Shown: positions 1-19,707, numbered from the stretch's first letter. The stretch is DNA of 20,000 bases from an uncultured virus (IMG/VR IMGVR_UViG_3300030060_004020) (IMGVR_UViG_3300030060_004020:58325-78324); one strand, 5' to 3'. The notes: generated by a model from the sequence alone, not told the origin. Program-made: numbers and translations.

Positions 1-133
1 TTCTACGAAGTGCAGGTTTAGTATAATTACCCGCTTGATTTACTGTTGATTTTCTCTTAGGCTTTTTTCTTTTTTTACGGGCTTTCTTGCCTCTTCTACC
101 GGATTTTCTTTTCAAAATTTCTTGCCAACTCAT
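1..133 (-). CDS. Small basic protein, truncated by the window edge; W-leader; DUF5872-like motif
   Basis: Manual translation: MSWQEILKRKSGRRGKKARKKRKKPKRKSTVNQAGNYTKPALRR. The VNxAGNYTKPxLR motif is recalled from DUF5872-like phage proteins. Start overlaps the upstream stop (ATGA). Confidence 0.7.
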   Translation of the reverse strand, partial: MSWQEILKRKSGRRGKKARKKRKKPKRKSTVNQAGNYTKPALRR

Positions 134-276
134 ACTTTCATCCCCTTTGGTTTACCCGCTTGCTCCCAACACTTTCTACAAAATCCAAATGGGTGAACAT
201 CTTTAACAGTAAAACATCTACCACAATACTTGAATTGTAGTTTCTGTTTACTAATTACCCATTCTTTTGTATTCAT
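130..276 (-). CDS. 48-aa zinc-finger protein (CxxC...CxxC)
   Basis: Manual translation: MNTKEWVISKQKLQFKYCGRCFTVKDVHPFGFCRKCWEQAGKPKGMKV. Fills the gap between its neighbours. Confidence 0.7.
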   Translation of the reverse strand: MNTKEWVISKQKLQFKYCGRCFTVKDVHPFGFCRKCWEQAGKPKGMKV

Positions 277-280
277 ATTA

Positions 281-2524: not shown

Positions 2525-2534
2525 TTATATCACC

Positions 2535-3965: not shown

Positions 3966-3973
3966 AATCCCAC

Positions 3974-4717
3974 CTACTGATATAGTTCTCCCTTTCTTCT
4001 TTGAATAATCTTATTTAGTTCTTCTTTTAGTTGTTTACCATCTCTATATTTATTCTCTATTATATCAACAATTTTTCTAAATAGTTTCATAATATCTTTA
4101 TGTTCAGCACCCTCTCCCATATAGGCAATCGTTTGTATTATATTTGTTATAGCAATCCAATCATGCCCTGCTCCTCTATCTAATCTTCCGTGCATTTCAT
4201 ATATTGAATTTATAAAAACTTGCATCCATTCTTCCATTTCATTTAATGGAGTAAAACTTTTTTTTAATACCATCTGCCATTTCTTTATCCCGAAGTCTTC
4301 TCCATACCTATTTCTAAACTGTTCTATTAATTTAGAGTCTATACCCATTTCATCTTCGGGAGGTATGTCGAAATTATACACTTGTCTATTCTTTTCTTTC
4401 CAAGTTTCATTGGGTATTGTCTTTGCCTTGAATCCTGCAATCTTAGGCTTATCTCCTATTAACTCCAATCTTTTTTCGGACATCGGCCTCCAACTTTTTG
4501 AGTCTTCTTTGGATTTCATTCCGCCCAATATAGCATAAGTTCCCTTATCACTATACCCTGCAATACCAACTACTTTACCATCTACTCTTCTTATAACATA
4601 CTTATCCAAGTCATACCAAACAGGAACACTCCTATTTATTTTATCATCGGGATTATCATTATTCCAAGCACCTTCCGCTTCTGTTTTAGAATGTGGGCCG
4701 GTTACTTCATCAGTCAT
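3974..4717 (-). CDS. Hypothetical protein; possible degenerate GNAT-like N-terminal half; internal W-leader-like motif
   Basis: Start moved to MTDEV, which follows AGGTGATGAT. YVIRRVDGKVVGIAGY...AILGGMKS resembles GNAT strands (weak). Internal KWQMVLKKS. Confidence 0.7.
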   Translation of the reverse strand: MTDEVTGPHSKTEAEGAWNNDNPDDKINRSVPVWYDLDKYVIRRVDGKVVGIAGYSDKGTYAILGGMKSKEDSKSWRPMSEKRLELIGDKPKIAGFKAKTIPNETWKEKNRQVYNFDIPPEDEMGIDSKLIEQFRNRYGEDFGIKKWQMVLKKSFTPLNEMEEWMQVFINSIYEMHGRLDRGAGHDWIAITNIIQTIAYMGEGAEHKDIMKLFRKIVDIIENKYRDGKQLKEELNKIIQRRKGELYQ

Positions 4718-4721
4718 ATCA

Positions 4722-7175: not shown

Positions 7176-9487
7176 TATTTCTCCTCCTTGAATAGTTTTC
7201 CGTCTATCATTTGTCTTAGCAAGTTCTCATCATAGTATAATGTCTTATAGTTCTCCGGCCTATTTGCTATGTCTTCTAATTTCTTCTTTAAAGATTTCTT
7301 AAACAATTCCCTTATTTTGTTTAAATCTTCATTAACTTTATTGGCGAGTTCTTCTATGGCTTCTTTAAGAGATTCATTTTCTAGTGAAAGATTTTCTCTA
7401 GCAATGTCACCGACTATCTCTTTCAAAGGTTTATTTGCTTCAACGGTTATTTCGTTTTCTTCGGCATCTAAGTCCTTTACTTCTACTTTCTTTTTGTATT
7501 CAGCCGCAGGGAATAGAAGTTCTGCCGTGTATAGGGCGACAGCAAAGGCTTGAGACTTATCCATTTTTTTAGACAGTAAATTTTCTATATTAGACTTTGA
7601 TATGACCTTACCTAATGTTTGGTCTTTTGGTAAAGAAACTAATAACTCATAAAACGCCTTAGCAATCTCATTAGAAAAATCATCGGCTGTTATTGGTTCT
7701 AGGTCTTCTAGTTCATCAATAAATTCACCAAGTTTTTCATCATCTTCATCCCACGATTCTTCTTCTTGCATTGTTTCTCTTACAAGGGGTTCTAGTCTTT
7801 TAATGAAGTCTCCTAACTCTTTATTGGTTGTAATGTATTTATTTCCTGCTCTTATCAAGTATTTACTCTTATCATCTGTGTTTTGAGTATCTAGGTTTTG
7901 AGTTCTAAACTTTCCATAAAGGTCTTCAAAGGTATCATCCTCTAAATTTTCTTTACTAAACAGCCATTTTATTACTTCTGCGTCAAACTCTTCAAAGTTT
8001 TCATCTCCGACTAATTCGTTGTATTCTTTTTCTGCTTCTGCTAATTCTTTATCACTTAACTCCGATGTCTTCTTATTTAATGCCCTAGCGACTGTTGCTT
8101 TAGCAGAATCTAACGAATATTTTGCAGTTCTTTTTGATAATCCCTTACTTGCTTCAAAAAAGGCATCCGAACCACTAGTAGTTAGCAATTGTTCAAAAAA
8201 TGGGTGAATTTCTAACTTTCTTGCCCCTCTAGCACCTTTTTGGAACATAAGATTATCAATTTTTTCATTATTTATCTTGAAAAGTAGAGGAGTTTTGTCT
8301 AATTGTCGCTTTGCTCTCTTTTCTCCACGAACTTTTATGCCAAATTGCATTTTGCTTGCTCCTAAGACATTCAAATATGTCTCTACTTGTTTTTCTCCGA
8401 CATTTTCAGCAATCAACTTAGTCAATTCAGCATCTTCCATAGCATAGCCGCCAATTTTTGTTTTATTTTGCAGTTTTTCATCCGAACTCACTAACAATTC
8501 ATACAATTCGGGATAATCAACATAAAAAAGGATTCTTGCTTTCTCATTTGCTCTCATTTTAGCGGCTCTTTGTGAATATTTAGCCGGTTTTAGGTCTTTT
8601 TGCTCTATATCCTTAAATGATTTTTTGCCACCAAGAATAATTCTTTTCTTTGTCCTTGCTTCAGCCGTAAATCCTTGTCTAAATGTCAAACGAACACCAT
8701 CTTTATCAACAAATTTAGATAAAAATTCTTCTTGTTCAATTTTTTTCCTTACGGGGATGTCTACAACCTTACCATAAAGCGTAAGATTTTCGTTTATCTT
8801 GTTTTTTGACTTAAATTTGTTGCTATTTGCTGTAAATTTTTTGAAATCTCCTACCTTTTTAGCATAAACTATACCTTCGATGTTTTCAATTCCAATCACA
8901 ATCAAGGCTTTGTTGAAAATAACACGGTCTTTGAAGAAATCTTGAACACTTACATTACTATCCTTGATACTGTTTTTCAAAACAACGGTCAATTTTTTTA
9001 GATTTTGTTGCCCTATTACCTTTCTTAGTCTATCTTTGCCTCCACCGGACAAATTTTTCTTTTGTTCTTCTAGTGAATTTCTCAAGTCTTGTAGTTGGTT
9101 TGAATTTAGCGTTTCTAAATTAGCATATTTGTTTATTTTTTCTATAAAACTTAAAGACTCAACAACTCTTTTTTCTTTACTATAATCTCTTTTAGTGGCC
9201 ATGTGTTTTTCCATAACCTTTGTGAATCTTTCGTAGACTTCCTCTAGCCTGTCTTTGTATTTTCTGTATGCCTCATTGAAATTTCTACGAAAAATATTTT
9301 TAAATTCTGTAACATTTGAGTAAAAATATTCTACTGAACCGGAAGAAGTAGTTTTTCCAAACTTAGACAGAACTTCTCTTTTAGCATCCTTTTTGTTTTC
9401 TGTTTTCTTATCAGAAAGCATGTCTTGATAAGTAGAATCACCCATCAAAAAATCCCAAAAGAAAGAAGCAGGAAAAGGAAATACCAC
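7175..9487 (-). CDS. 770-aa hypothetical protein (basic N-terminal half, acidic C-terminal half)
   Basis: Long ORF; GTG start after AGGTGG; stop overlaps the next start. Confidence 0.8.
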   Translation of the reverse strand: MVFPFPASFFWDFLMGDSTYQDMLSDKKTENKKDAKREVLSKFGKTTSSGSVEYFYSNVTEFKNIFRRNFNEAYRKYKDRLEEVYERFTKVMEKHMATKRDYSKEKRVVESLSFIEKINKYANLETLNSNQLQDLRNSLEEQKKNLSGGGKDRLRKVIGQQNLKKLTVVLKNSIKDSNVSVQDFFKDRVIFNKALIVIGIENIEGIVYAKKVGDFKKFTANSNKFKSKNKINENLTLYGKVVDIPVRKKIEQEEFLSKFVDKDGVRLTFRQGFTAEARTKKRIILGGKKSFKDIEQKDLKPAKYSQRAAKMRANEKARILFYVDYPELYELLVSSDEKLQNKTKIGGYAMEDAELTKLIAENVGEKQVETYLNVLGASKMQFGIKVRGEKRAKRQLDKTPLLFKINNEKIDNLMFQKGARGARKLEIHPFFEQLLTTSGSDAFFEASKGLSKRTAKYSLDSAKATVARALNKKTSELSDKELAEAEKEYNELVGDENFEEFDAEVIKWLFSKENLEDDTFEDLYGKFRTQNLDTQNTDDKSKYLIRAGNKYITTNKELGDFIKRLEPLVRETMQEEESWDEDDEKLGEFIDELEDLEPITADDFSNEIAKAFYELLVSLPKDQTLGKVISKSNIENLLSKKMDKSQAFAVALYTAELLFPAAEYKKKVEVKDLDAEENEITVEANKPLKEIVGDIARENLSLENESLKEAIEELANKVNEDLNKIRELFKKSLKKKLEDIANRPENYKTLYYDENLLRQMIDGKLFKEEK

Positions 9488-9495
9488 TAAACCAC

Positions 9496-9639
9496 CTACT
9501 TCATAGCATATCTTTCTATTTCATCTATTGCTGTCTTAACATACTTAGGGGCTGACTTCATACTATCTCTTAGTGTTGCTAAGGCTTGAGCAATCATAGC
9601 CTCATCCATATCTTCTTTAATTATATCTTGCCAATTCAT
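9496..9639 (-). CDS. 47-aa W-leader protein
   Basis: Manual translation: MNWQDIIKEDMDEAMIAQALATLRDSMKSAPKYVKTAIDEIERYAMK. ATGA overlap. Confidence 0.75.
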   Translation of the reverse strand: MNWQDIIKEDMDEAMIAQALATLRDSMKSAPKYVKTAIDEIERYAMK

Positions 9640-9905
9640 TGTAATTTCTCCTGCATTTTTCTAGTTATCATAACCATTTCATTATAGAAATCCCTCGCTT
9701 CATCTCTATTTTTTGCATTTTTTATTTTATCATAATATATTTTATATGTTTCAACAAAATCGTTCTGTTTCTTTTTCCAAAATTTATTTGTGATAAAAGG
9801 TCTAATATTGGTTTCCATGTTTTCTATTTGGTTTTGAATCCATTGGTAGTCGGGGTTTGATGCTCTTTCCCTAATGCTAAGTTTAACAATTTTTTCCCAA
9901 CTCAT
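9636..9905 (-). CDS. 89-aa W-leader protein
   Basis: Starts MSWEKIVK; ATGA overlaps on both sides. Confidence 0.8.
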   Translation of the reverse strand: MSWEKIVKLSIRERASNPDYQWIQNQIENMETNIRPFITNKFWKKKQNDFVETYKIYYDKIKNAKNRDEARDFYNEMVMITRKMQEKLQ

Positions 9906-9923
9906 TGTAATTTCTCCTGCATT
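9636..9923. repeat. 22-bp exact direct repeat flanking the 89-aa gene
   Basis: TCATTGTAATTTCTCCTGCATT at 9636-9657 and 9902-9923; both genes end MQEKLQ*. Confidence 0.9.
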
Positions 9924-10558
9924 CTTTTCTTAATGTCTAACCAAATTTCGGGATTGTTTTCAGCAAGCACTTCTTGAACAATTTGCATCTGTGCAAATAT
10001 AATTGTGTCCTGTCTCTTATGTATAAGTTTGCCCTTAAACTCCATGAGATATTTTAGCGACTCTCTAACTTCTTTCGCAAGTTTAGTTAGGCTATCTATC
10101 TCTCTAGGCTCTAAATCAACTGCACCAAACAAGTCATCTAACTTGCTATCCAGTCTTTGTATGTTATTACTTAGCAAATCAATTTCATTAACTTCTTTCT
10201 TTGCTATCATTACTGCGGCTGACTCTTGAACAATCGGTGCTAGATGGTGTTTCATATGTCGTTGCACTTGTTCTTTAGTAGTGTCTAATGCTTCGGCAAT
10301 TGCTTCAGCACTTATCTCACCATTGGCTAAGTTTTCTTCGTAGTGTTTTCTCATTGGGTCTGTGCATAATACACACTTAGGATTACTACTATTGACATAA
10401 TCTCCCATGTGGTTTCTTTGGTGTTGTGCCGCAGTTCCACTTCTCCAATCGTGTCTTGAATCTAAATCATCACAAGAAACCTCACCGGCTTCCAACATTC
10501 TTTCGAGTTCTTCTCTATCTTCATGTTGGCAAAAACCACAACGCTTTCTTGTTACCAT
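9902..10558 (-). CDS. Tandem CxxC-HTH-HxxxH protein with coiled coil; candidate terminase small subunit or DNA-binding protein
   Basis: CGFC...HQRNH and CVLC...HMKHH units followed by a helical tail; AGGTGA SD. The TerS role is inference. Confidence 0.7.
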   Translation of the reverse strand: MVTRKRCGFCQHEDREELERMLEAGEVSCDDLDSRHDWRSGTAAQHQRNHMGDYVNSSNPKCVLCTDPMRKHYEENLANGEISAEAIAEALDTTKEQVQRHMKHHLAPIVQESAAVMIAKKEVNEIDLLSNNIQRLDSKLDDLFGAVDLEPREIDSLTKLAKEVRESLKYLMEFKGKLIHKRQDTIIFAQMQIVQEVLAENNPEIWLDIKKRMQEKLQ

Positions 10559-10568
10559 TTTAAATCAC

Positions 10569-10910
10569 CTATTCGCTCCAAAGAACATCATATCTATTGT
10601 CGGAATATCTTACAATATCTACAGGAGAAACCTTAGAATGAAGTATTTTATCTGGGTCTACATCGTTAATTCCACTACCCTCTATGTCTATGTCTAATTC
10701 TTCTCCTGTATCATTAAAAACAACTTTATTGATACTCACTCCCATATCCCTAAACATAGATTTTCTAACTCCAAATTCCATACTCCAAAAAACTGTCACT
10801 TCTCTATCTTCTAAATATTTTCCATCCCGTTTTTCTGTATCTGTAAATGTAACATTATCCGTTTCAAATTCAAAATACTGTTGCGATTTTTTCAGTTCGT
10901 TTTTCCACAT
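10569..10910 (-). CDS. Beta-rich acidic W-leader protein
   Basis: Start moved to MWKNELKKS, which follows GGAGTTGA. Confidence 0.75.
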   Translation of the reverse strand: MWKNELKKSQQYFEFETDNVTFTDTEKRDGKYLEDREVTVFWSMEFGVRKSMFRDMGVSINKVVFNDTGEELDIDIEGSGINDVDPDKILHSKVSPVDIVRYSDNRYDVLWSE

Positions 10911-10914
10911 TTTA

Positions 10915-12033
10915 TCAACTCCATAAATATTCATGCCATGACTTTTGTATGTCATCCTTTGGAACTTTTAATCCTTTTAGATTTAGATGCTCGCCCCATG
11001 CTAACTTCTTTGACTTACCCTTTCCAACAACCGCTACGATAAGTGATGACATAGCAGTTGCTTTGAAAGGCTTTAATGAAAATGTTTTGATTTGACCCGC
11101 AGGTGGTTCTATACCTGCTATCTTTGAAAGTGCCTCTTTACTTGTTTTTTTGTTATCTAATGTAAACTTCATACCCGAAAAAGTGCTTGCCATTTCTGCC
11201 AACTTAGGAACTCCATTTTTCTTAAACAAGGTTTTTCTTTTTAGTAATCCCAATACATGCTTTCTAACAGGTGGGAAAATTGCTAACTTAGAAGGTAACT
11301 TAACCTGCAAGTGCATATTCTCAATTGCTTTATTTGATTCTGCCAAAGCAATCTTCAATATATCTTTTAATCCAACTTTAATCAAATCACCCCTACCGAA
11401 AAGGGCTTGAGCCAAAGGTGGGTTAGCCGTATTTGGTGTATCACTATACCATGTTGGAGGTGCTTTCTTTCCATATTTTTTCTTATACCACTCATTTGCA
11501 TAGTGGCCGTAAACTTTGTCTTTCTCTTTACCTATGGCATTACCATCAGCATCCGACTTTGCAGGAAAATTAAATACAGTATTTTTAGGATTTAAGGTGC
11601 TTGTTGCTTCTTCAAAACCTTCAATAGCATCTTGGAATTCTTGTAGTTTTTTTACATGGCTTACTAACAGAATCTTATCTTCTTTGAATTCTTCCATAAA
11701 TTCTTCTATGTCATCTAATAGAGTAAATGCTCCTGTGCTTCCCCTATTTGGCGACCTATCCCTTCTATATCCGCTAGTTACATGCTCTTTCAATTGTAAA
11801 TATAGATTAGCAGGGTGAGGCTGTCCACTCTTAGTATCTATTTGTCCAACCTTCTTTCCCTCTCTAGGTTTTCTAATTCTTCTACCTTCACTAAGTAATT
11901 TTTTCCTACCTATGCCTTGACACTTCTTAACCCAAGCCTCATACTCATCAATAAACTTGAATGAACCTCTAACTTCAATATCAGTGCTTCCAACCTTAAT
12001 CACGGACTTTTTCTTCTCGTCTTTTCTTACCAC
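10915..12033 (-). CDS. Basic hypothetical protein (~372 aa)
   Basis: Long ORF; likely GTG start at 12033 after GGAGGTG. Confidence 0.75.
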   Translation of the reverse strand: MVRKDEKKKSVIKVGSTDIEVRGSFKFIDEYEAWVKKCQGIGRKKLLSEGRRIRKPREGKKVGQIDTKSGQPHPANLYLQLKEHVTSGYRRDRSPNRGSTGAFTLLDDIEEFMEEFKEDKILLVSHVKKLQEFQDAIEGFEEATSTLNPKNTVFNFPAKSDADGNAIGKEKDKVYGHYANEWYKKKYGKKAPPTWYSDTPNTANPPLAQALFGRGDLIKVGLKDILKIALAESNKAIENMHLQVKLPSKLAIFPPVRKHVLGLLKRKTLFKKNGVPKLAEMASTFSGMKFTLDNKKTSKEALSKIAGIEPPAGQIKTFSLKPFKATAMSSLIVAVVGKGKSKKLAWGEHLNLKGLKVPKDDIQKSWHEYLWS

Positions 12034-12487
12034 GCTTTCCACCTCCGTATTTTATATTGAATAGTTCGGGGTTAGCCCCATGACTACCAAAAGAATATCC
12101 CCCTGCTTTTTTTTCAAAAGTATCTCCATCAGTTTTTTTAGTCCTTTCAATCAGTTTGTCTAAATCCTGTTCTATTGGATAAAGGGCATCATTAGCGTGA
12201 TATTGCTCAATGCGAGGCAAATCCTCGATTAGTTTTTTTAGTTCTTCAATTCGATTCTTTAATTTGTCTGCTCGCTGTTTAAAGTTAATGGGTTCTCTTT
12301 TAGGCTTAAATTGTTTTCCACTAGGTTGTTTTCGTTGTGACTTTGGTGTAGTTGGAAAAGCCTTTGGTTTTTCTTTACTTTCCTTTTGGGCAGGTCTTGA
12401 ATAAAATTTACTAGTGTCTATTTCACCACGCTTTTTCCTTTTAGGAATTTTTATTTCTCTATTCTTTACTATATTTTGCCAACTCAT
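11996..12487 (-). CDS. 163-aa basic W-leader protein
   Basis: Starts MSWQNIVK. Confidence 0.8.
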   Translation of the reverse strand: MSWQNIVKNREIKIPKRKKRGEIDTSKFYSRPAQKESKEKPKAFPTTPKSQRKQPSGKQFKPKREPINFKQRADKLKNRIEELKKLIEDLPRIEQYHANDALYPIEQDLDKLIERTKKTDGDTFEKKAGGYSFGSHGANPELFNIKYGGGKRGKKRREEKVRD

Positions 12488-12499
12488 GTCAAACCCTCT

Positions 12500-12799
12500 T
12501 TAATCATCTAAAGCAATAGTCATTATTTTTTCTATTTGTTTTTCAAGTCCTTCTATCGTTTTATTCATTGACTCTCTTTTTTCAGCATCAAAATCTTTAC
12601 TCATCGTTTGTAATTTCTTGATTGTTTTCTTTAGTTCATCCACTCTTTTCAAAAAGTAACTCATGTCTCTTTTATCTTGACCTCTAATTGCTTTGCCCTT
12701 TAGTCTTCTTCTTTCCAAAGCCCTTTGCTTTCTTCTGTCAATTTTATCTTTCTCTCGTTCAAAACGACTATCTTCTTTAATTATATTTTCCCAACTCAT
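12500..12799 (-). CDS. 99-aa W-leader coiled-coil protein
   Basis: Starts MSWENIIK. Confidence 0.8.
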   Translation of the reverse strand: MSWENIIKEDSRFEREKDKIDRRKQRALERRRLKGKAIRGQDKRDMSYFLKRVDELKKTIKKLQTMSKDFDAEKRESMNKTIEGLEKQIEKIMTIALDD

Positions 12800-12800
12800 A

Positions 12801-13028
12801 TCAAGCCCTCGCTAAACTTCCAATTATTCTCTTAATGCTATCCATAGTAGTCTTATGCAATCTATGATATTCTCCGGCAATATCTTCAAATTCATCAGCA
12901 TCAATCATTTCTTCACCTTGATACTGCCTAACAATCTCATCCAACTCTTTCAAAACATCTCTTTGTTTGCCAAAGTTATCAATGGCATTTTGCGTAGTGT
13001 TACGCTTTAGAATACTTTGCCATGTCAT
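12801..13028 (-). CDS. 75-aa W-leader protein
   Basis: Starts MTWQSILK. Confidence 0.8.
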   Translation of the reverse strand: MTWQSILKRNTTQNAIDNFGKQRDVLKELDEIVRQYQGEEMIDADEFEDIAGEYHRLHKTTMDSIKRIIGSLARA

Positions 13029-13291
13029 TTCTTACCACCCTTTCTTTCTATTCTATTTATGTAGTATTCAAGAGTTTTAAGGCTATCTTTATCTCCTGTT
13101 TCTAAGTATTCTTCTTCTTCCATTCTAACAACCATATCTTCATTTTTATTATCTATTGGCAGTAGTGCTTCTAATCTTCTTTTTAAATTAACATATTCTG
13201 GATTTGAAGCATACATATCTTTCGGTGCATATTTTCTACCAAGCCTTCTTGCTTCTCTTATGTCTATTTTAAGAATAGTTTGCCAAGTCAT
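13025..13291 (-). CDS. 88-aa W-leader protein
   Basis: Starts MTWQTILK; AGGTG SD. Confidence 0.8.
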   Translation of the reverse strand: MTWQTILKIDIREARRLGRKYAPKDMYASNPEYVNLKRRLEALLPIDNKNEDMVVRMEEEEYLETGDKDSLKTLEYYINRIERKGGKK

Positions 13292-13301
13292 TTTAAAACA
13301 C

Positions 13302-13535
13302 CTACTTTCTTTTTGCTTTTAATTCGTTGAATAGTTTAACAATATATTCCGACAACTCATTTAATCTTTCAACAACTTCTTCTACTTCTTCGTAGTGTTC
13401 ACCAAGTTCCATAATGTTCATCGGTAACTGACCCTTTTCTTTTAGTTTCTCTAAGTAGTCCATAAACTCTTCATGTTCTTTTATGGCTTCTAATAATTCA
13501 GCCTCATTGCCTTTTAGAACATCTTGCCAAGCCAT
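13302..13535 (-). CDS. 77-aa acidic W-leader protein
   Basis: Start moved to MAWQDVLK. Confidence 0.75.
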   Translation of the reverse strand: MAWQDVLKGNEAELLEAIKEHEEFMDYLEKLKEKGQLPMNIMELGEHYEEVEEVVERLNELSEYIVKLFNELKAKRK

Positions 13536-13536
13536 A

Positions 13537-13809
13537 TTAATCATCTCTTTTAAACGGATTAAATGGCACATCTCTTCTTCTTCTTCTTCTATCCTTTCTT
13601 CCGATAGTTGCCTTTCTTTTTTTATCTTCTTGAATTATTCTAGCCATTTCTTCTTTTGTAGGTAGTGGCTTTGGCTCCTTTACCTTTGTTGGTTTAGGCT
13701 CTTTAGGAATAAACTCCCTTTCGCTTTCACTGTCTATTTTCCGTTGTTGTGCTTCTCTAACTTTTTTAGAATCTCTAGGATTCCTCTTTACTATATCTTT
13801 CCAACTCAT
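13537..13809 (-). CDS. 90-aa basic W-leader protein
   Basis: Starts MSWKDIVK; AGGTGA SD. Confidence 0.8.
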   Translation of the reverse strand: MSWKDIVKRNPRDSKKVREAQQRKIDSESEREFIPKEPKPTKVKEPKPLPTKEEMARIIQEDKKRKATIGRKDRRRRRRDVPFNPFKRDD

Positions 13810-13821
13810 TTCTTATCACCT

Positions 13822-14172
13822 TTAATTATATATCTCACTTGCTATTTTCTTCATTCGTTCATCAAGTTCTTTAGTGGCTTTTTCGTATTCTTGCCTTATT
13901 TTCTTTTGATTTTCTTCATATTGTTTATTATCAAAATCGTCATTACCACCATATTTTGAATAATCTCCGTGATATTTCCTTTTCAATCCCATTTTTATAT
14001 TTCTCATTTCTTCGGATATTTTTTCCATCTCGATTTCGCCAGCCTTTATTCTAGCATTCACCGCCCTGTCTTCTTGTTTTTTCTTTTTAGCCTCTCTTTT
14101 GAGTTCTTTTTTATGTCGTTTTGTTCGTCTATCAGTATAGTAACTACTTTTCAATACATCTTCCCAACTCAT
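13822..14172 (-). CDS. 116-aa W-leader protein
   Basis: Starts MSWEDVLK; AGGTGG SD. Confidence 0.8.
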   Translation of the reverse strand: MSWEDVLKSSYYTDRRTKRHKKELKREAKKKKQEDRAVNARIKAGEIEMEKISEEMRNIKMGLKRKYHGDYSKYGGNDDFDNKQYEENQKKIRQEYEKATKELDERMKKIASEIYN

Positions 14173-14276
14173 TTCTTACCACCTGTAATAAAATCTTTCT
14201 TGGTTTTCTTTTCTGTTTCATCAATCTTCTTTGACTGAACATCAAACCAAGCATCTAAGTTATTGCACCTTGTCAT
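14169..14276 (-). CDS. 35-aa small protein
   Basis: Manual translation: MTRCNNLDAWFDVQSKKIDETEKKTKKDFITGGKK. AGGTGA SD; ATGA overlap. Confidence 0.65.
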   Translation of the reverse strand: MTRCNNLDAWFDVQSKKIDETEKKTKKDFITGGKK

Positions 14277-14285
14277 ATTTTTCAC

Positions 14286-14717
14286 CTACTCAAATGTAAT
14301 AGCAATATTATCTAATGTCAATCCATCTCCGTCTTTTACCAATTCAGCATCTATGTAAGGAATTAAAGTCATAGGTAATTCCTTAGTGTTAAAATTCATA
14401 TCTACTTGAAAATCATCTACTACAACATCTTTATCTTGTATGTCCCATTCCTCATTAGCCGCATCAAAATCCTTATCAAAAGAAGCATCTACTCCTACTA
14501 CAGTAATTTTGTCAATATTCGGCTCTTGAATATATACTGAATCATCACTATGCTCAAGAGTCAAACTCCAATTAATTATTACTCTTTCATAATCAGTTTC
14601 ATAGACACCTTTTCCACCAGTAATAGAATGCAATCTACCATCTTTACGCTTCTCAAGTTCAGTAGTATATGTAAAGTCTTGAACTCTCGCTTTACGAATA
14701 GCGTTTTTCCATGTCAT
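14286..14717 (-). CDS. Beta-rich acidic W-leader protein
   Basis: Start moved to MTWKNAIRK, which follows AGGTGAATAAT. Confidence 0.8.
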   Translation of the reverse strand: MTWKNAIRKARVQDFTYTTELEKRKDGRLHSITGGKGVYETDYERVIINWSLTLEHSDDSVYIQEPNIDKITVVGVDASFDKDFDAANEEWDIQDKDVVVDDFQVDMNFNTKELPMTLIPYIDAELVKDGDGLTLDNIAITFE

Positions 14718-14726
14718 ATTATTCAC

Positions 14727-14990
14727 CTATATACTTTCTTCAAGAGGGGTTTTATCTTCATATACTTTAGTCGCATAAAAAAGCGGGTCGTCGCCTTCCC
14801 TTTCTAAATCCATCAAATAATCGTCAAATGTTCTTGATTTATCCCTAAGTTCCATTATTCTATCAACCATTTCATTAGCCTCTTTTAGAGTTAATGTTCC
14901 TCTATCCATACCTTCTTCTAATTTATCTAACAATTCAAAACCCTCTTTCATCGTAGCACTTGTTCTTTTTAGTATATCTTCCCATGTCAT
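14727..14990 (-). CDS. 87-aa W-leader protein
   Basis: Start moved to MTWEDILK, which follows AGGTGAATAAT. Confidence 0.8.
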   Translation of the reverse strand: MTWEDILKRTSATMKEGFELLDKLEEGMDRGTLTLKEANEMVDRIMELRDKSRTFDDYLMDLEREGDDPLFYATKVYEDKTPLEESI

Positions 14991-15044
14991 ATTATTCACC
15001 TTTTATTTTAGACGACTTTTTCAAAAATTTTTCTAGGAATTTTT

Positions 15045-15275
15045 TTAACTCCTACTATATCCGGTTTTTGAAACGCTAATCTTAGCACCGTTTACATCTG
15101 CGTATGTTAGTGGCGTTCCGCTTTTTTGTTGAGCGATTCTATTCAATTCATATTCAAAATCATTTTGAACTTGTTTATTAGGCAAACCTTGCATATCTGC
15201 TAATGTTTTTCTATAAAACTGTTCAGCATCGTTTTCATATCTTATGTTTTTTCTAATCATATCTTTCCAATTCAT
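15045..15275 (-). CDS. 76-aa W-leader protein
   Basis: Starts MNWKDMIRK. Confidence 0.75.
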   Translation of the reverse strand: MNWKDMIRKNIRYENDAEQFYRKTLADMQGLPNKQVQNDFEYELNRIAQQKSGTPLTYADVNGAKISVSKTGYSRS

Positions 15276-15393
15276 TTAATTTCAACTCTTTTTTTAAAAA
15301 TGTGGCGGATTTTGTTTGTCACTAGCGTAAAAATTTTTTTTATAACTATTGTATTTCCAGAATAAAAGTTATACTATTCATCATTAACTATAC

Positions 15394-15645
15394 TTAATTA
15401 AAATCAAATAAACTAGTATTCTTAGTATCTTTAACCTTACCTTGCATAGTCATTTTATTCTTAGCCTTAATGTCTCTAATGTATCTTAGTAGTGTATTTA
15501 ACTTAGTTTTAATGTCTTTTAACTCATCATCTAACTCTTCAGTATAACTACCACTCTTAGTTTTAGTCTCATTAAGTATTTCCTTAAGTTTTTGTGATAT
15601 TGTATTTAACCTAGAAACTAAGCCAAATTCAATATCTTGACTAAT
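15394..15645 (-). CDS. Possible coiled-coil protein with ATT start, or pseudogene
   Basis: GGAGGT lies 6 nt before an in-frame ATT; the frame reads (M)SQDIEFGLVSRLNTISQKLKEIL... Confidence 0.4.
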   Translation of the reverse strand: MSQDIEFGLVSRLNTISQKLKEILNETKTKSGSYTEELDDELKDIKTKLNTLLRYIRDIKAKNKMTMQGKVKDTKNTSLFDFN

Positions 15646-15800
15646 GCAACAACCTCCTTTAACAGGTCGTAGTAAGATAAGGGTAATAAATGTAGTAGTT
15701 TTATGGGTTAATATGTTATACACAGTAGTTAATAGGTCAAAATTAACGATGAATGCTTATATTATTCAAATTAATAAAGAATAAAAAATTTTGGAACAAA

Positions 15801-15865
15801 GCCATATGGTTGTAGAGCAACCGATTAACAAGCATATGGTTCACTTTGAGAACACGAATTATATA
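15801..15865 (+). promoter_or_regulatory. Cassette element 1 (atypical, two CATATGGTT copies) plus TATA
   Basis: GCCATATGGTTG at 15801, AGCATATGGTTCACTTTGAGAAC at 15831, ATTATATA at 15858-15865. Confidence 0.8.
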
Positions 15866-15901
15866 TTATATCTATATTAAAGGGTAGAAAGAGTGATTAA
15901 A

Positions 15902-16324
15902 ATGGTATGTGAAGAATGCGGAAAAGCGAGTGAATATAATTTGTGTGTTGAATGTGTTAGAGACTTAGACGAAGATGACAGATTTGAACGCTTTATGCAA
16001 GCAGAAGAAATGGTAATGCCAAAAGACCCAAGAGAAAGGCAAGAATATCAATGCCCTAAGTGCAATGGCTTAGACTGTATCTATGGCGATTTTGTTTTGA
16101 ATGACTGGGAAGAGTTTAAACCTAAATTAACACCGACTGATAATGATATGTGGTGCCAATACTCGTATAACGGTGAAATAGTACAAGGTAATACCTTACT
16201 TGATGAAATTCAAGAGTTATCTTTCGCTTGTACTAAATGCGGCTATAATTTCAATGGTGATGATGAGGAACTCAATGAGAACATAGTTACTGTCATAGAG
16301 GCTTATAGGTGGGATGATGAATGA
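15902..16324 (+). CDS. Acidic zinc-finger protein (4 CxxC)
   Basis: CEEC, CVEC, CPKC, CTKC; ATG after GAGTGA. Confidence 0.8.
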   Translation: MVCEECGKASEYNLCVECVRDLDEDDRFERFMQAEEMVMPKDPRERQEYQCPKCNGLDCIYGDFVLNDWEEFKPKLTPTDNDMWCQYSYNGEIVQGNTLLDEIQELSFACTKCGYNFNGDDEELNENIVTVIEAYRWDDE

Positions 16325-16515
16325 TAGGAATTAAAGGTTGGGCAGTTTGGAATAATGAGGCTTGGTGTGTGGAATATGAAAACCTATACCGCACAAAAGA
16401 AGAGGCTATGAAGGCGGCTAAAAAGCACTATAGTTACATTGGAGACACTGAAGAAGACTATGGCGACCACATGGTGTGTGAAATTAAAATAACAGTTCAT
16501 TTTTCTTTATTTTGA
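16321..16515 (+). CDS. 64-aa hypothetical protein
   Basis: ATGA overlap with the upstream gene; followed by a terminator. Confidence 0.7.
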   Translation: MIGIKGWAVWNNEAWCVEYENLYRTKEEAMKAAKKHYSYIGDTEEDYGDHMVCEIKITVHFSLF

Positions 16516-16526
16516 TTTAAGCGGTT

Positions 16527-16572
16527 AAAAAACAACCCTGTATTTAGGTGCAGGGTTGTTTTTCCTTTTTTT
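16527..16572 (+). terminator. Hairpin plus T-tract, identical to 17007-17052
   Basis: AAAAACAACCCTG/CAGGGTTGTTTTT stem followed by CCTTTTTTT. Confidence 0.85.
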
Positions 16573-16575
16573 CGA

Positions 16576-16654
16576 GGTTTGGTGTCGTTATATATTATAA
16601 CGGTGATTGTGACACCAAACCATATGGTTTACTTTGGAATACCCGTTTCATATA
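16576..16654 (+). promoter_or_regulatory. Cassette element 2: hairpin, palindrome, TATA
   Basis: GGTTTGGTGTC-N24-GACACCAAACC, then ATATGGTTTACTTTGGAATAC, then TTCATATA. Confidence 0.85.
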
Positions 16655-16674
16655 GTTATATAGAGATAGTATGC

Positions 16675-16992
16675 ATGTCAAGCGTAATAGACAAATTTGA
16701 GCAAGAATTAAAGGACAACAATGTAGTTAAGTATGTACAATCAACAAATCAAAATATCAATCCTAAAAAAATAACTGAAATGTTAAATCGTAGGACTACA
16801 CTACATAAAATAATTAATGTTATGAAACAAATGAATTTGAGTGAGTCAATTTGGAATAAATTTAATCATGAAGAAATTGAAGAAATAGCAACAGCATTTC
16901 ACGCTGTTATAGATGAATTCAAGGAAGATAGTGAGGCACTATTCCAAACTGTCCAAGATTGGGAAGATTGGGCAGATAGGCGACCTTATTGA
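16675..16992 (+). CDS. 105-aa helical protein, probably leaderless
   Basis: Start moved to MSSVIDK, 21 nt after the TATA end. The ORF-track extension runs through the promoter element. Confidence 0.75.
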   Translation: MSSVIDKFEQELKDNNVVKYVQSTNQNINPKKITEMLNRRTTLHKIINVMKQMNLSESIWNKFNHEEIEEIATAFHAVIDEFKEDSEALFQTVQDWEDWADRRPY

Positions 16993-17006
16993 GGTCAAAA
17001 CGGTCA

Positions 17007-17052
17007 AAAAAACAACCCTGTATTTAGGTGCAGGGTTGTTTTTCCTTTTTTT
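17007..17052 (+). terminator. Hairpin plus T-tract, identical to 16527-16572
   Basis: 46-bp exact copy, 480 bp downstream. Confidence 0.85.
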
Positions 17053-17057
17053 ATTGA

Positions 17058-17135
17058 GGTTTGAGGTCGTTTTTATTAACTTACAAGATAGTAACCTCAA
17101 ACCATATGGTTCACTTTGAGAACTCAGTTCTTATA
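17058..17135 (+). promoter_or_regulatory. Cassette element 3
   Basis: GGTTTGAGGT-N26-ACCTCAAACC, then ATATGGTTCACTTTGAGAAC, then TTCTTATA. Confidence 0.85.
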
Positions 17136-17197
17136 CCAAACCATAGATAGGAGGTGCTTCAAGGGGTTGAAGTGTAATTATCATTGAGGTGAAAATT

Positions 17198-17674
17198 ATG
17201 AATTTGGAAAAACTAGAAACTAATAGAAATAACATACGAACATGGATGAAAGAAAATGAAAGCCCGCTTAATGATGCTTTAGAGGGTCTACTCACAGCAT
17301 CGGAGTTGGCTAAAACTGATGATGAAGCGGTCAAGTATTGGTCGTCAATTCGTTCACTTTGTGGCAACATGAGTCCTTCTCCTGTTAGAAAAGGTGTGCA
17401 ATCAAAATACTCTACTGAGGTTTTGGCAGTATTAGACGCTATTGGAACAGAAGTTGATGAGGCTTCAGTTCGCTACCATAACGACGGTATTATGTCTAAG
17501 GTATTGTTTTCTCACGGTAAATCCGGCGGAAAACAAATGCTAGCAGAAGTATTTGGAAAGACTATGAGAAACATGACCATTGGAAAACTTAAGAAAAAGT
17601 TGGATGATGGTATATGGGATGGAACTCTAGCCGGTTTAGACTCCTTGACCGAAATAACGGAGGATAATGAGTGA
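17198..17674 (+). CDS. Hypothetical protein, paralog of 18962-19471
   Basis: Shared YWxSIRxxCGNxxxSPxRKG and DGxWDGTL; ATG after GAGGTGA. Confidence 0.85.
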   Translation: MNLEKLETNRNNIRTWMKENESPLNDALEGLLTASELAKTDDEAVKYWSSIRSLCGNMSPSPVRKGVQSKYSTEVLAVLDAIGTEVDEASVRYHNDGIMSKVLFSHGKSGGKQMLAEVFGKTMRNMTIGKLKKKLDDGIWDGTLAGLDSLTEITEDNE

Positions 17675-17681
17675 TTAACAT

Positions 17682-17805
17682 TTCAACCCCTTGTTGCCCC
17701 TACTCCCGATTAGGCCGAATAGTGAAACTACTCTTACAGTGCAGTAAATAAGCACTTCTTAAGAGATTTGAAAAAATAGTTTCACTATTCGGTCTAAGTT
17801 TTTTT
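17682..17805 (+). other. Structured 3' UTR / terminator, copy A
   Basis: 17682-17693 pairs with the 5' leader at 17160-17171. A 21-bp stem (17710-17730 / 17777-17797) encloses an inner CTCTTA/TAAGAG stem; T-tract follows. Confidence 0.8.
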
Positions 17806-17811
17806 ATTTAG

Positions 17812-17893
17812 GGTTTGATGCGGCCTACGGCCTAAATGTTTAAAGAACATTTCATCAAACCATATGGTTTACTTTGAGAACCTGATTCATATA
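17812..17893 (+). promoter_or_regulatory. Cassette element 4
   Basis: GGTTTGATG-N32-CATCAAACC, then ATATGGTTTACTTTGAGAAC, then TTCATATA. Confidence 0.85.
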
Positions 17894-17913
17894 TCTATTG
17901 GTATAGAGATAGC

Positions 17914-18273
17914 ATGCGAAAGATAACAAAAGACGCAGTAAGAGCATTTGAACAGCACAAGAAATTTAAGAGAGGAAATACGACGGTTGAAGTTAGTGAA
18001 AGTAAATTATTTGCCGAACTAAAACTACACGGCAACACAATAGCCAAGAGTGGAGTATTTGAGGGCTTAATGATTTCATCAGCCGGTTGGAATACTGTAA
18101 CAACTAAGGAACGCTTGAACGGCCTTGAAGGTGTAAACATCCATCAAAAGGACTTCACATGGTATCTTAACGGCCGTGAGTGGAATGGTGCTTGGGTTGA
18201 TGTTGGAACTTGGAATTTATTAGATAAATTCCCCAATAAAACCTATAATTATTCGATGCACTACCTTAACTAA
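17914..18273 (+). CDS. Phage hypothetical protein, probably leaderless
   Basis: LHGNxIA, GWxTxTTKERLN and QKDFxWY motifs, recalled from phage hypothetical proteins; ATG 21 nt after TATA. Confidence 0.85.
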   Translation: MRKITKDAVRAFEQHKKFKRGNTTVEVSESKLFAELKLHGNTIAKSGVFEGLMISSAGWNTVTTKERLNGLEGVNIHQKDFTWYLNGREWNGAWVDVGTWNLLDKFPNKTYNYSMHYLN

Positions 18274-18305
18274 TTATGAACTAATATAGTCTGAGGACTA
18301 TAACT

Positions 18306-18345
18306 GCCTTCCTTGCCCTTTCGGGGGCAGGGTTGGCTTTTTTTT
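18306..18345 (+). terminator. GC-rich hairpin with TTCG loop plus T8
   Basis: TGCCCT-TTCG-GGGGCA followed by TTTTTTTT. A further TATAGTC/GACTATA hairpin lies at 18285-18302. Confidence 0.8.
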
Positions 18346-18347
18346 GG

Positions 18348-18428
18348 GGTTGTGAGTAATGTATTTTATAATACTAGGAGAGTATTACTCACAACCATAT
18401 GGTTCACTTTCGGAATACAGATTATATA
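18348..18428 (+). promoter_or_regulatory. Cassette element 5
   Basis: GGTTGTGAGTAAT-N23-ATTACTCACAACC, then ATATGGTTCACTTTCGGAATAC, then ATTATATA. Confidence 0.85.
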
Positions 18429-18448
18429 CCAAACAACAAGGAGGTTAA

Positions 18449-18813
18449 TGTAGGGCGACACCTTCGGGTGGTGCGGTCTTATGAAACATGAGCGAGGCGA
18501 CTGTGCATAGTCGCTACTCTTTGAGTGTAATTAAAACACGATGAACTGTGTTCGCAATAAGGTGAATTAGACCTATCTTTATGTTGAGGTGACGACCTCT
18601 TAACCTGCACGATATTCCAATGGCTATTAGTGGCCATAACACCATTGAGAAACAAAGGCGAAAGTCAAAGTTGAAAATGTAAGACGGCAGGATATAGAAA
18701 GAGATTGTAAGTCATACCAATACTAGTTGGGACTAGTATGACCTCTCATCAAACATGCTAAGTATCACGCATTCCCTTGCTTTGAACGAGTAGCCGGAGT
18801 TTCTCATTTTTTT
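18449..18813 (+). ncRNA. Putative ~360-nt structured non-coding RNA, family unrecognised
   Basis: Has its own promoter element and T-tract, no ORF in the track, and many hairpins (UUCG and GAAA loops). A long-range helix pairs 18646-18653 with 18799-18806. Confidence 0.7.
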
Positions 18814-18818
18814 ATTGA

Positions 18819-18895
18819 GGTTTGGCATCGTTATTATTACTTTACTGGTAGTAATGCCAAACCATATGGTTCACTTTGAGAACTTGAATTATATA
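18819..18895 (+). promoter_or_regulatory. Cassette element 6
   Basis: GGTTTGGCAT-N25-ATGCCAAACC, then ATATGGTTCACTTTGAGAAC, then ATTATATA. Confidence 0.85.
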
Positions 18896-18961
18896 CTATT
18901 AGACAAAGAGAAGTTGCTTCACAGGGTATGAAGTGAACTTACAAACATCGGAGAGATAAAT

Positions 18962-19471
18962 ATGATGGAATATAGTAAATTAATTAGCAAAACAGACGAT
19001 ATATTGACATGGCTTGATGTTAATGATGCAGGTGCTTTAGATAGTGCCATTCGAGGCATCATTGCAGTTGCTAGAGTCGAAGGACAAACAGAAAAACAAT
19101 ACGGTAACTATTGGGGTAGTATTCGCCAAATGTGCGGAAACCTCCCAAACTCACCAATCCGCAAAGGAACACAACCGTCGCTACCTGTAGAAGCACAAGC
19201 AGTTGTGGATTCTGTAATGACTCAAGTGCAAACTGCCTTTGCGGGTATTACTGAAAACACTGACCTACTTCTTGAAGTAGTGCTACCTTTTAGAAATACA
19301 ACTGGTAAAGGATTTGAGTCTATGGATGACCTAGCCGCATATTTGGCGGGTCGAGCCAAAGATGCTTTAGTCAAGGCTCACAAAGATGGTCGTTGGGATG
19401 GTACTCTTAACGATGGACTAACAGGTATGACTCCCCCTCAACCTGCATCAAAGAAGGAGGATAGCGAGTAA
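18962..19471 (+). CDS. Hypothetical protein, paralog of 17198-17674
   Basis: Shared YWxSIRxxCGNxxxSPxRKG and DGxWDGTL. Confidence 0.85.
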   Translation: MMEYSKLISKTDDILTWLDVNDAGALDSAIRGIIAVARVEGQTEKQYGNYWGSIRQMCGNLPNSPIRKGTQPSLPVEAQAVVDSVMTQVQTAFAGITENTDLLLEVVLPFRNTTGKGFESMDDLAAYLAGRAKDALVKAHKDGRWDGTLNDGLTGMTPPQPASKKEDSE

Positions 19472-19482
19472 GGCTAACTGAT

Positions 19483-19622
19483 TACCCTGTGTTGCCCCTC
19501 TACTAAATAAATTCGACAAATTAGCACCCAAAGGACATTACAACTCATACAGTCAAGAGAGTTCACGACTTCTTATGAGATAGTAAAAAATAAAGTGTCC
19601 TTTGGGTGTCTATGCTTTTTTT
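19483..19622 (+). other. Structured 3' UTR / terminator, copy B
   Basis: 19483-19491 pairs with the 5' leader at 18920-18928. Stem 19525-19537 / 19596-19608 encloses an inner CTCATA/TATGAG stem; T-tract follows. Confidence 0.8.
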
Positions 19623-19628
19623 ATGCAG

Positions 19629-19707
19629 GGTTTGAGGCGTAGAATAATATTCAACAAAAGAATGTGCCTCAAACCATATGGTTCACTTTCGGAACACAAT
19701 TGATATA
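19629..19707 (+). promoter_or_regulatory. Cassette element 7
   Basis: GGTTTGAGGC-N27-GCCTCAAACC, then ATATGGTTCACTTTCGGAAC, then TTGATATA. Confidence 0.85.

Follow-up and report, generated by a model that had tools for sequence, protein, structure and literature searches.

Hairpins with conserved pairing flank an invariant palindrome at the unit junctions of a magrovirus-like small-gene array

What is the function of six large inverted repeats that lie one after another between the small genes at one end of a viral contig? The stretch of DNA considered here (IMGVR_UViG_3300030060_004020:58325-78324, 20,000 nucleotides, referred to below as the window) makes up the final 20 kb of a 78,324-bp contig from an uncultured virus in IMG/VR, with 34% G+C and an estimated completeness of 84%. 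An earlier reading of the sequence (the original prediction) described six covarying hairpins between terminator and promoter, each overlapping a palindrome, and likened them to integron attC sites or to the hairpin promoters of phage N4. The analysis presented here bears out the conservation of pairing in these hairpins and adds what that reading had missed, namely a second hairpin on the far side of a central ATAT and a setting that is probably archaeal. We tentatively favour, with slightly less than even confidence, an interpretation in which the hairpins belong, as elements acting at the DNA level, to a cassette junction that delimits transcription units and is the point of crossover between them.

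The six inverted repeats, here called hairpin A, were all found with both arms in place and with spans of 45-50 nt. The elements of the junctions are as follows, the inverted repeats of hairpin A and the palindrome being given without strand.

15797..15866, plus strand: first junction of the array, with the marker ACAAAG-CCATATGG-TTGTA, a 5-bp hairpin GGTTG/CAACC, a second half-core GCATATGGTTCACTTTGAGAAC and a TATA octamer
16559-16572, 17039-17052, 17799-17809, 18338-18345, 18807-18813 and 19616-19622, plus strand: T-tracts
16576-16586/16611-16621: hairpin A copy 1, GGTTTGGTGTC/GACACCAAACC, span 46 nt, 24-nt loop with an inner palindrome
17058-17067/17094-17103: hairpin A copy 2, GGTTTGAGGT/ACCTCAAACC, span 46 nt
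17812-17820/17853-17861: hairpin A copy 3, GGTTTGATG/CATCAAACC, span 50 nt, loop holding two inner hairpins
18348-18360/18384-18396: hairpin A copy 4, GGTTGTGAGTAAT/ATTACTCACAACC, span 49 nt
18819-18828/18854-18863: hairpin A copy 5, GGTTTGGCAT/ATGCCAAACC, span 45 nt
19629-19638/19666-19675: hairpin A copy 6, GGTTTGAGGC/GCCTCAAACC, span 47 nt
16618-16629, 17100-17111, 17858-17869, 18393-18404, 18860-18871 and 19672-19683: core palindrome AACCATATGGTT
17108..17124, plus strand: decayed hairpin B (GGTTC-ACTTTGA-GAACT, with a CTTTG motif)
16626-16643, 17866-17882, 18401-18416, 18868-18884 and 19680-19695, plus strand: equivalents of hairpin B
16647..16654, plus strand: TATA octamer (TTCATATA); the others start at 17128, 17886, 18421, 18888 and 19700

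Hairpin A begins 2-6 nt past the T-run and consists, in the window copies, of 9-13 uninterrupted pairs closing a loop of 23-32 nt. The T-run is on its 5' side and its 3' neighbour is ATATGGTT, not a U-run. The right arm ends with the AACC that forms the left part of the palindrome AACCATATGGTT, an overlap that had been predicted and that is present in all six copies, and the palindrome as a whole is made up of the last bases of hairpin A, ATAT and the first bases of hairpin B. This 12-mer occurs six times in the contig, always at these hairpins. It is followed by YACTTTSRGAAY and, about 25 nt past hairpin A, by an A/T-rich octamer ending in TATA. Hairpin B is represented in the window by a 4-bp mini-stem in four of the six copies. 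The first junction has the core and hairpin B, without hairpin A and with no upstream unit on the plus strand. Small palindromes are also seen inside the loops of hairpin A at 16587-16603, 17822-17832, 17834-17852 and 18360-18373 (for example GTTATATATTATAAC and GGCCTACGGCC), so that copies 1, 3 and 4 fold into branched or stacked forms.

With DNA parameters the six hairpins have folding energies of -7.2 to -14.5 kcal/mol on the plus strands and -7.6 to -14.9 kcal/mol on the minus strands (copy 1 gives -12.5 kcal/mol on each), and the two strands are equally stable. For each of the 12 folds none of 200 shuffled sequences folded as well, with z-scores of -3.4 to -6.8. The contig contains 22 perfect inverted repeats of a similar size class, compared with 5-18 in five shuffled genomes, and six of the 22 are these hairpins, packed within 3.1 kb. 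A covariance model built from 19 hairpins of the window's clade found matches in the 78.4 kb solely at these six places. Two finer claims about the folds stand only in part. The stem had been said to continue into GT opposite GT in five of the six copies; this is a direct extension of the stem in copies 1, 4 and 6, whereas a C/A mismatch intervenes in copies 2 and 5 and the feature is absent from copy 3. The letters concerned sit in loop ends that are common to paralogous copies (CGT...GTA) and are absent from the relatives G002-G004, and we take them as a sign of shared descent rather than as evidence of pairs. The hairpin and the palindrome had also been described as mutually exclusive folds. 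Exclusion does exist between the hairpins and the duplex palindrome, but the palindrome's own hairpin amounts to merely -0.8 kcal/mol, and the true alternatives are therefore the duplex palindrome and the flanking hairpins; what competes with hairpin A is either the duplex or hairpin B.

The general form of the element emerged from pattern scans of IMG/VR, which located the core both in G001, a close relative, and in relatives further removed. At 39 loci in 38 viral contigs (about 30-97 kb, plus a 185-kb contig that holds the marker twice) the 19-nt marker of the first junction is conserved, and each of these loci holds several CCATATGG sites clustered between small genes. Read in the direction of the gene strand, the order is the 3' end of the preceding gene, where a GC hairpin or T-run is common, then hairpin A, ATAT, hairpin B and a TATA-like Y-T-A-T/A. 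In the family, both hairpins have the form GGT...ACC; the loop of hairpin A carries CAAAG at its 3' end and that of hairpin B carries CTTTG at its 5' end. In the relatives the stem of hairpin B is 5-13 bp long and covaries. The foot of hairpin A, ATAT and the foot of hairpin B together constitute the palindrome ACCATATGGT, and the junction shows overall dyad symmetry, its left side carrying CAAAG and its right side CTTTG. In the clade to which the window belongs, hairpin A is larger (9-13 bp, loops of 23-32 nt), has mostly lost CAAAG and comes after long T-tracts, and hairpin B has decayed to GGTTC-ACTTTGA-GAAC. In some genomes the orientation of the array is reversed relative to the marker. 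A complete relative of 92,240 bp with direct terminal repeats (L066, G008) has the array marker at 955-973, so that its array begins about 1 kb from the genome end. The palindrome is not confined to this family, since a separate group of viral contigs (L061, which is G005 and 6.5 kb long, and L012, L014, L015, L024, L031 and L048) carries it in another setting, with 15-16 copies of (T)TACCATATGGTA(A) in 5 kb among GGGAGGGYGGG boxes and a single copy of CCATATGGTTCACTTTGGGAAT followed by an A/T run.

Conservation of pairing was measured across 562 distinct half-junctions in registers anchored at the GGT/ACC foot. Watson-Crick pairs alone were counted because a wobble-permissive version had a high chance background. 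At least five uninterrupted pairs were present in 243 of the 562 half-junctions compared with 23.0 after shuffling, at least seven in 91 compared with 1.9, and at least eight in 55 compared with 0.2; the last 55 show 23 different 5-mers at stem positions 4-8. Within the clade, MAFFT alignments placed the left arms (A1) or the right arms of five rows (A2) out of register, and for this reason pairs were counted on a model-fitted alignment (A3) and on the base-anchored registers. In the model-fitted alignment, which is biased towards structure and contains both strands of several hairpins together with eight weak matches from other loci, 93.2% of cells are paired compared with 75.1% after shuffling (a level reached in none of 500 shuffles), and registers slid along the alignment give at most 58.6%. 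In the same alignment 53 cells are changed on both sides compared with 14.6 after shuffling, and five of the nine pairs change on both sides. The claim that the letters of the stem vary while pairing is kept is thus supported both in the clade and in the wider family.

At the core it is the sequence that is kept. In 260.5 kb the core octamer has 277 distinct exact sites compared with 105 one-mismatch variants, and we estimate that the latter number is close to the chance level for 24 variants. Of the 277 exact sites, 129 have a flanking hairpin of 6 bp or more, as have 11 of the 105 variants. The positions flanking the octamer, which were outside the search word, are A in 236 and T in 266 of the 277. 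The invariance of the octamer and the pairing of the arms show that two constraints coexist at the junction, one on the sequence of the core and one on the structure of the arms.

The signals on either side of the hairpins bear on what the junction separates. The T-runs of the window fit archaeal oligo-T terminators, which we take them to be. Archaeal TATA boxes precede the start of transcription by a constant 25 nt or so, and leaderless mRNAs are common in archaea. The ATG lies 28 nt past the start of the TATA octamer in copies 1, 3 and 6, none of which has a Shine-Dalgarno (SD) sequence; in copies 2 and 5, where the distance is 70 and 74 nt, there are a stem-loop leader and an SD sequence. 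In the family the ATG of 23 of 64 units comes 26-31 nt past the end of hairpin B and that of another 22 comes 63-77 nt past it, and the stem of hairpin B in the relatives is followed by T at position 2 in 53 of 72 cases and by A at position 3 in 56 of 72. Junctions were oriented by a codon-usage score, which was used instead of a noisy orientation by the length of open reading frames (ORFs); 133 of 243 could be oriented in this way, with agreement with the ORF context in 75 of 76, and the remaining 110 of the 243 were dropped. Independently of the gene content of the virus, the promoter geometry is archaeal, with an A/T-rich box at a fixed distance from a predicted leaderless start. If the TATA boxes and T-tracts are read in this way, both hairpins would lie outside the transcripts of the units themselves, and the earlier statement that the hairpins follow the T-tract and precede the TATA, outside transcripts, agrees with the transcripts predicted from those two signals. 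Bacterial promoter types were also considered. A sigma70 promoter (-35 TTYACT, -10 TATAYY) fits by eye, but three of seven junctions pass a lenient scan, and a scan of the region found 19 such promoters against 17.7 expected, which is no excess; in the relatives there is no constant -35 element, and the distance from core to TATA varies whereas that from TATA to ATG is fixed at 26-31 nt. Promoters of Bacteroidetes type and sigma54 type were dropped on inspection by eye.

The contig looks like that of a magrovirus, a tailed archaeal virus of the ocean, and the host is probably archaeal. Its replication genes comprise a split family-B DNA polymerase (PolB), the two ORFs of which are separated by other genes, an RFC-type clamp loader and two ATP-dependent ligases, and it also has a RadA/Sak4-like ATPase, a Cas4-like nuclease, an ERCC4+HhH nuclease, a DnaQ-like exonuclease and an HK97-type head module. 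In L008 the two PolB ORFs are at 7411-9075 and 10852-11769, about 1.8 kb apart with ORFs between them, and the ERCC4+HhH (XPF-type) nuclease is at 14580-15326 in the replication arm. A chaperonin is encoded in all four of four complete relatives (92-97 kb). This gene set fits the description of magroviruses, in the excerpts of it used here, as tailed viruses of 65-100 kb with an archaeal-type replication module, a PolB with an inserted gene and, frequently, a chaperonin (PMC5434244). The large terminase (TerL) shares no more than 28% identity with any record, and no close DNA relatives were found among cultured phages.

Evidence that whole units are re-assorted at the junctions came from comparison with G001, in which the neighbouring 375-amino acid gene is 97% identical to that of the window. 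The left flank of window copy 5 (terminator and hairpin A) resembles junction 4084 of G001 (0.88) and its right flank junction 5364 (0.90). The left flank of copy 2 resembles junctions 3496 and 2734 and its right flank junction 4084 (0.95). Copy 4 has kept its left partner in G001, and its right flank (the TATA and gene side) has no close match; copies 3 and 6 are concordant with G001 on both flanks. The switch of flank between the window and G001 falls inside a shared core of 20-24 bp. This re-assortment shows that the upstream unit passes on hairpin A and the downstream unit the TATA box and leader. More widely, 23 distinct pairs of junctions from different contigs were found in which one half has an identity of 90% or more and the other of no more than 45%, with the identity boundary 2-5 nt left of the centre in 13 and 9-24 nt left of it in 10. 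Junctions of distant clades share little apart from the 10-bp palindrome, and DNA contigs of relatives from public runs match the window at the junctions and carry other DNA between them. By codon score, 58 junctions lie between plus-strand genes, 75 between minus-strand genes, 35 between divergent and 31 between convergent genes.

We read the hairpins as DNA-level signals because they lie outside the predicted transcripts and fold equally well on either strand. The six hairpins would then be the upstream-unit halves of twin-hairpin junctions that separate self-contained units in a magrovirus-like small-gene array. Each junction would run from an oligo-T terminator through hairpin A, ACC-ATAT-GGT, hairpin B and a TATA box to a start about 28 nt further on, with hairpin A on the terminator side, hairpin B on the promoter side and the two stems framing the invariant palindrome. 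Such a junction may have two jobs, the first being to bound and insulate the adjoining transcription units and the second to provide the site at which related viruses exchange, lose or flip units, whether by ordinary short-homology recombination or by means of a dedicated enzyme.

Several observations weigh against this interpretation or against the archaeal setting that goes with it. With RNA parameters hairpin B is steadier on the sense strand (47 versus 12 of 63, p about 3e-6) and hairpin A on the antisense strand (45 versus 17 of 70, p about 7e-5), although these p-values overstate the evidence because the rows are related. Internal wobbles show the same kind of asymmetry, with GT 14 versus AC 3 in hairpin B and GT 9 versus AC 17 in hairpin A. 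Given the symmetry of the junction the two biases are a single statement, namely that the CTTTG-loop version of each hairpin is the better one. The bias could indicate that a single strand of each hairpin is functional, as opposed to a symmetric cruciform, or it could come from inner arms that are more constrained than the outer ones; in the window the bias of hairpin A is reversed with respect to the family, with the plus strand better in three of the six copies by 1.6-3.9 kcal/mol (RNA parameters). Loops of 23-32 nt disfavour the extrusion of a cruciform from duplex DNA. Two marine metatranscriptome runs yielded short contigs within coding parts (17429-17663 and 18997-19165) and no transcript ends; these short pieces cover no hairpin and are uninformative either way. 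Since the core is the sole sequence that the junctions have in common, exchange at the core is to be expected under any recombination and is no proof that the hairpins serve it. As regards the probable archaeal host, SD-like leaders precede two of the six units, matches to MCM in three of five genomes were all below the cut-off with none in the window's 84%-complete contig, and no primase was found in that contig, no search aimed at primase being made.

A purely transcriptional function is a real possibility, if an unlikely one. The palindrome would then be an operator bound by a dimeric regulator, of the virus or of the host, that switches every promoter of the array at once; the inverted repeats would tune access to the palindrome or insulate the promoter, and the exchange of units would be a by-product of shared sequence. 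Such a view accommodates a 10-bp palindrome that is near-invariant amid variable surroundings, the direct abutment of hairpin B on the TATA box in the relatives, and the presence of the element before most genes of the array, including divergent pairs with a TATA on both sides. However, a dimer that binds duplex DNA leaves the complementarity of the variable arms unexplained, and the distance from palindrome to TATA varies with the length of stem and loop, from 16 to 67 nt among the hairpins listed. Furthermore, some junctions precede the end of a converging gene and have no TATA (L071 c=3167; one case, judged by eye), and no candidate regulator was identified.

Two further proposals give the folded DNA an active part in recombination. 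In the broader of these, which we consider unlikely, the twin-hairpin palindrome would be a cassette-exchange site of archaeal viruses at which either an unrecognised enzyme or strand switching by a hairpin-stalled replisome reads the folded DNA and joins units exactly at ACC-ATAT-GGT. The narrower proposal, a dedicated structure-specific site with an attC-like mechanism in which an unrecognised enzyme binds the hairpins and cuts or exchanges at ACC-ATAT-GGT, must be regarded as more doubtful. The fixed outer bases, free inner stems and conserved core resemble the logic of attC sites as set out in the parts of PMC2727003 and PMC3053210 drawn on here. Exchange boundaries in distant clades fall at a core of merely about 10 bp, units occur in both orientations within arrays, the junction has the dyad symmetry described above, and the virus encodes ERCC4/HhH and Cas4-like nucleases. 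On the other hand, a tyrosine recombinase (PF00589) was found in none of five genomes (the virus's own contig and four complete relatives) by a search whose control matched 14 of 14 genomes and which did not extend to serine recombinases, and no Y1 transposase was above the cut-off. The stems are also without conserved extrahelical bases, and microhomology or copy-choice recombination predicts identical boundaries. The copies do not represent miniature inverted-repeat transposable elements, as they share no inverted ends past GGT(T)/(A)ACC and, by eye, show no target duplication. A replication origin and a primase site were among the other readings considered.

That hairpin A acts as RNA is improbable. 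Read-through of the T-tract would place it in the nascent transcript, where it could be a back-stop pause or a stem protecting the 3' end. Its position 2-6 nt past the T-run, its inheritance with the upstream unit and its absence from the first junction are all consistent with this, as is the finding that in the window the G-T pairs lengthen the stem on the plus strand alone and that RNA energies favour that strand in three of the six copies. There is, though, no T-run 3' of the hairpin, hairpin A is in the family steadier on the antisense strand, and the GT/GT extension is limited to paralogous copies with common loop ends.

It is very improbable that the pairing is unselected and is kept perfect by quasipalindrome correction through template switching during replication. 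This process is known in bacteria and would mimic compensatory change, but it leaves unexplained the constant position of the hairpins, the invariant GGT/ACC base and core, the loop motifs, and the persistence of pairing over 38 contigs with stems of 5-13 bp and loops of up to more than 50 nt.

Scarcely credible is an N4-type hairpin promoter used by an RNA polymerase of the virus or its virion, since, for all that stem identity is free while pairing holds, as it is in N4 according to the excerpts of PMC4496689 used here, and that the array is about 1 kb from the genome end in the relative with terminal repeats, no T7/N4-type polymerase was matched (PF00940 in 0/1 and 0/5 genomes, a weak negative in that the positive controls were also without match), a 2865-amino acid protein among the tail genes has no Pfam or PHROG match and one weak match in the PDB (a decoration protein, E 0.066), and the hairpin, with its large loop of 23-32 nt, is centred about 75-80 nt upstream of the predicted start, the distance to which is set by the TATA box. 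A polymerase of crAss-like or phiKZ-like type was likewise set aside: a DFDxD-type motif is found just in an acidic stretch of a 747-amino acid Nudix protein, and a motif-B-like regular-expression match in the 2865-amino acid protein is taken as chance.

Around the junctions the window is organised as follows. Minus-strand genes occupy 1-15,700 and include the large terminase, a Nudix fusion and large proteins without functional annotation, and from 15,800 onward small plus-strand units stand in a row.

15893-16324: zinc-ribbon protein, one of the small proteins of the array
Ending at 16515, plus strand: unit with a terminator stem at 16528-16563 and followed by a T-tract at 16559-16572
16675..16992, plus strand: unit 1 gene, 105 amino acids, apparently leaderless
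17198-17674, plus strand: unit 2 gene
17914-18273, plus strand: unit 3 gene, Kyano_Gp96-like
18450..18813, plus strand: unit 4, from about 25 nt past the TATA at 18421 to a T7 run, without a convincing ORF
18962-19471, plus strand: unit 5 gene
19728 onwards, plus strand: unit 6 gene

Unit 4 may be a non-coding RNA unit. Counted from its own TATA octamer to the T7 run at its end it covers 18421-18813, with a fold z-score of -1.8; a 51-nt piece of it (18613-18663) is present within contigs from two marine RNA runs, and parts of it are conserved in G001. Neither unit 4 nor the hairpins have an Rfam match, the window giving sub-threshold terminator-like matches alone. The paralogous genes at 17198-17674 and 18962-19471 have a common leader stem-loop (GCTTCAAGGGGTTGAAG and GCTTCACAGGGTATGAAG) at 17156-17197 and 18916-18961, and common 3' regions at 17680-17809 and 19480-19622 with CCYTGTTGCCCCT, after which and before the T-run there is a long hairpin (arms 17710-17738/17769-17797 and 19525-19537/19596-19608). 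In the 747-amino acid protein on the minus strand (281-2524) an HNH-like stretch and an acidic DDFDDD stretch occur together with a Nudix domain at the C-terminus; this protein is adjoined by proteins of 817 and 770 amino acids that have no match in Pfam, PHROGs or the ESM Atlas. G001 has an extra element of hairpin A type (L057 6780-6829) past the point equivalent to the end of the window's contig, and the array therefore probably extends beyond that end.

In the surface ocean magroviruses rank with the most abundant viruses of archaea, and no account is known of how their accessory genes are controlled and exchanged. In the magrovirus literature examined the element is not described, the terms promoter, TATA, palindrome and hairpin being absent from the text (supplements aside), and a full-text search with the octamer and 'phage' gave primer-type matches alone among the best 10 of 539. 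The 10-bp palindrome and its stems provide a sequence handle by which accessory arrays can be located, and the junction offers a testable model of promoter and terminator for an uncultured archaeal system as well as a clear case of DNA-level selection on pairing beside a recombination hot spot. If the cassette-exchange reading is true, abundant ocean viruses trade and flip ready-to-express genes much as integrons do, without a known integrase.

Of the systems already known, the PeSLs (promoter-early stem-loops) of T4-type phages are, by analogy, the closest in role to the window junction. In the parts of PMC2839356 and PMC4122927 consulted these are terminator-plus-promoter motifs that fence small ORFs and act as linkers for insertion, deletion and swaps. 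Both are composite linkers of terminator and promoter between small ORFs, which leave the units transcriptionally independent and are shuffled between close relatives. Inverse PCR has been applied to PeSL mini-circles. As described in those parts, however, the PeSLs have a sigma70-type promoter and a single stem-loop that is the terminator, and they belong to T4-like myoviruses, whereas the window junction has a T-tract terminator, a TATA-type promoter, two extra covarying hairpins and an invariant 10-bp palindrome, and belongs to an archaeal-type virus. Should the hairpins merely insulate promoters, the junction would still supply an annotation rule and an archaeal counterpart of the T4 PeSLs.

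The small DNA hairpin of phage N4, centred at -11 on the template strand, is read by a giant virion polymerase with the help of gyrase and single-stranded DNA-binding protein (PMC4496689, in the excerpts used here). The two systems have in common a DNA inverted repeat beside a promoter, non-conserved stem bases that may vary if paired and, in at least one relative of the window's virus, a location near the genome end; they differ in the distance to the start and the size of the loop, as given above.

The comparison with attC sites made in the original prediction is sound as regards logic and fails as regards membership. In both cases there is a hairpin at the 3' end of each unit in which structure is kept and sequence is free, with fixed outer bases, an adjoining crossover point and a variable order of units (PMC2727003, PMC3053210 and PMC5027507, each in the parts drawn on). 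Integrons have a recombinase of IntI type, whereas no integrase was found in the five genomes searched here; attC sites have extrahelical bases and an unpaired spacer, whereas the stems here are perfect, the hairpins are two and the core is palindromic. The cassettes of integrons are promoterless and depend on one platform promoter, whereas each unit here has its own TATA octamer and T-tract. Recognition of attC is confined to one strand, whereas here DNA energies are equal on the two strands and the bias seen with RNA parameters is inconsistent between window and family. If it is true that folded DNA is read at these junctions, they would represent a second, independent invention of attC-like logic, outside bacteria. 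By analogy, then, the window junction resembles both the PeSLs and attC sites in its logic and is a member of neither class.

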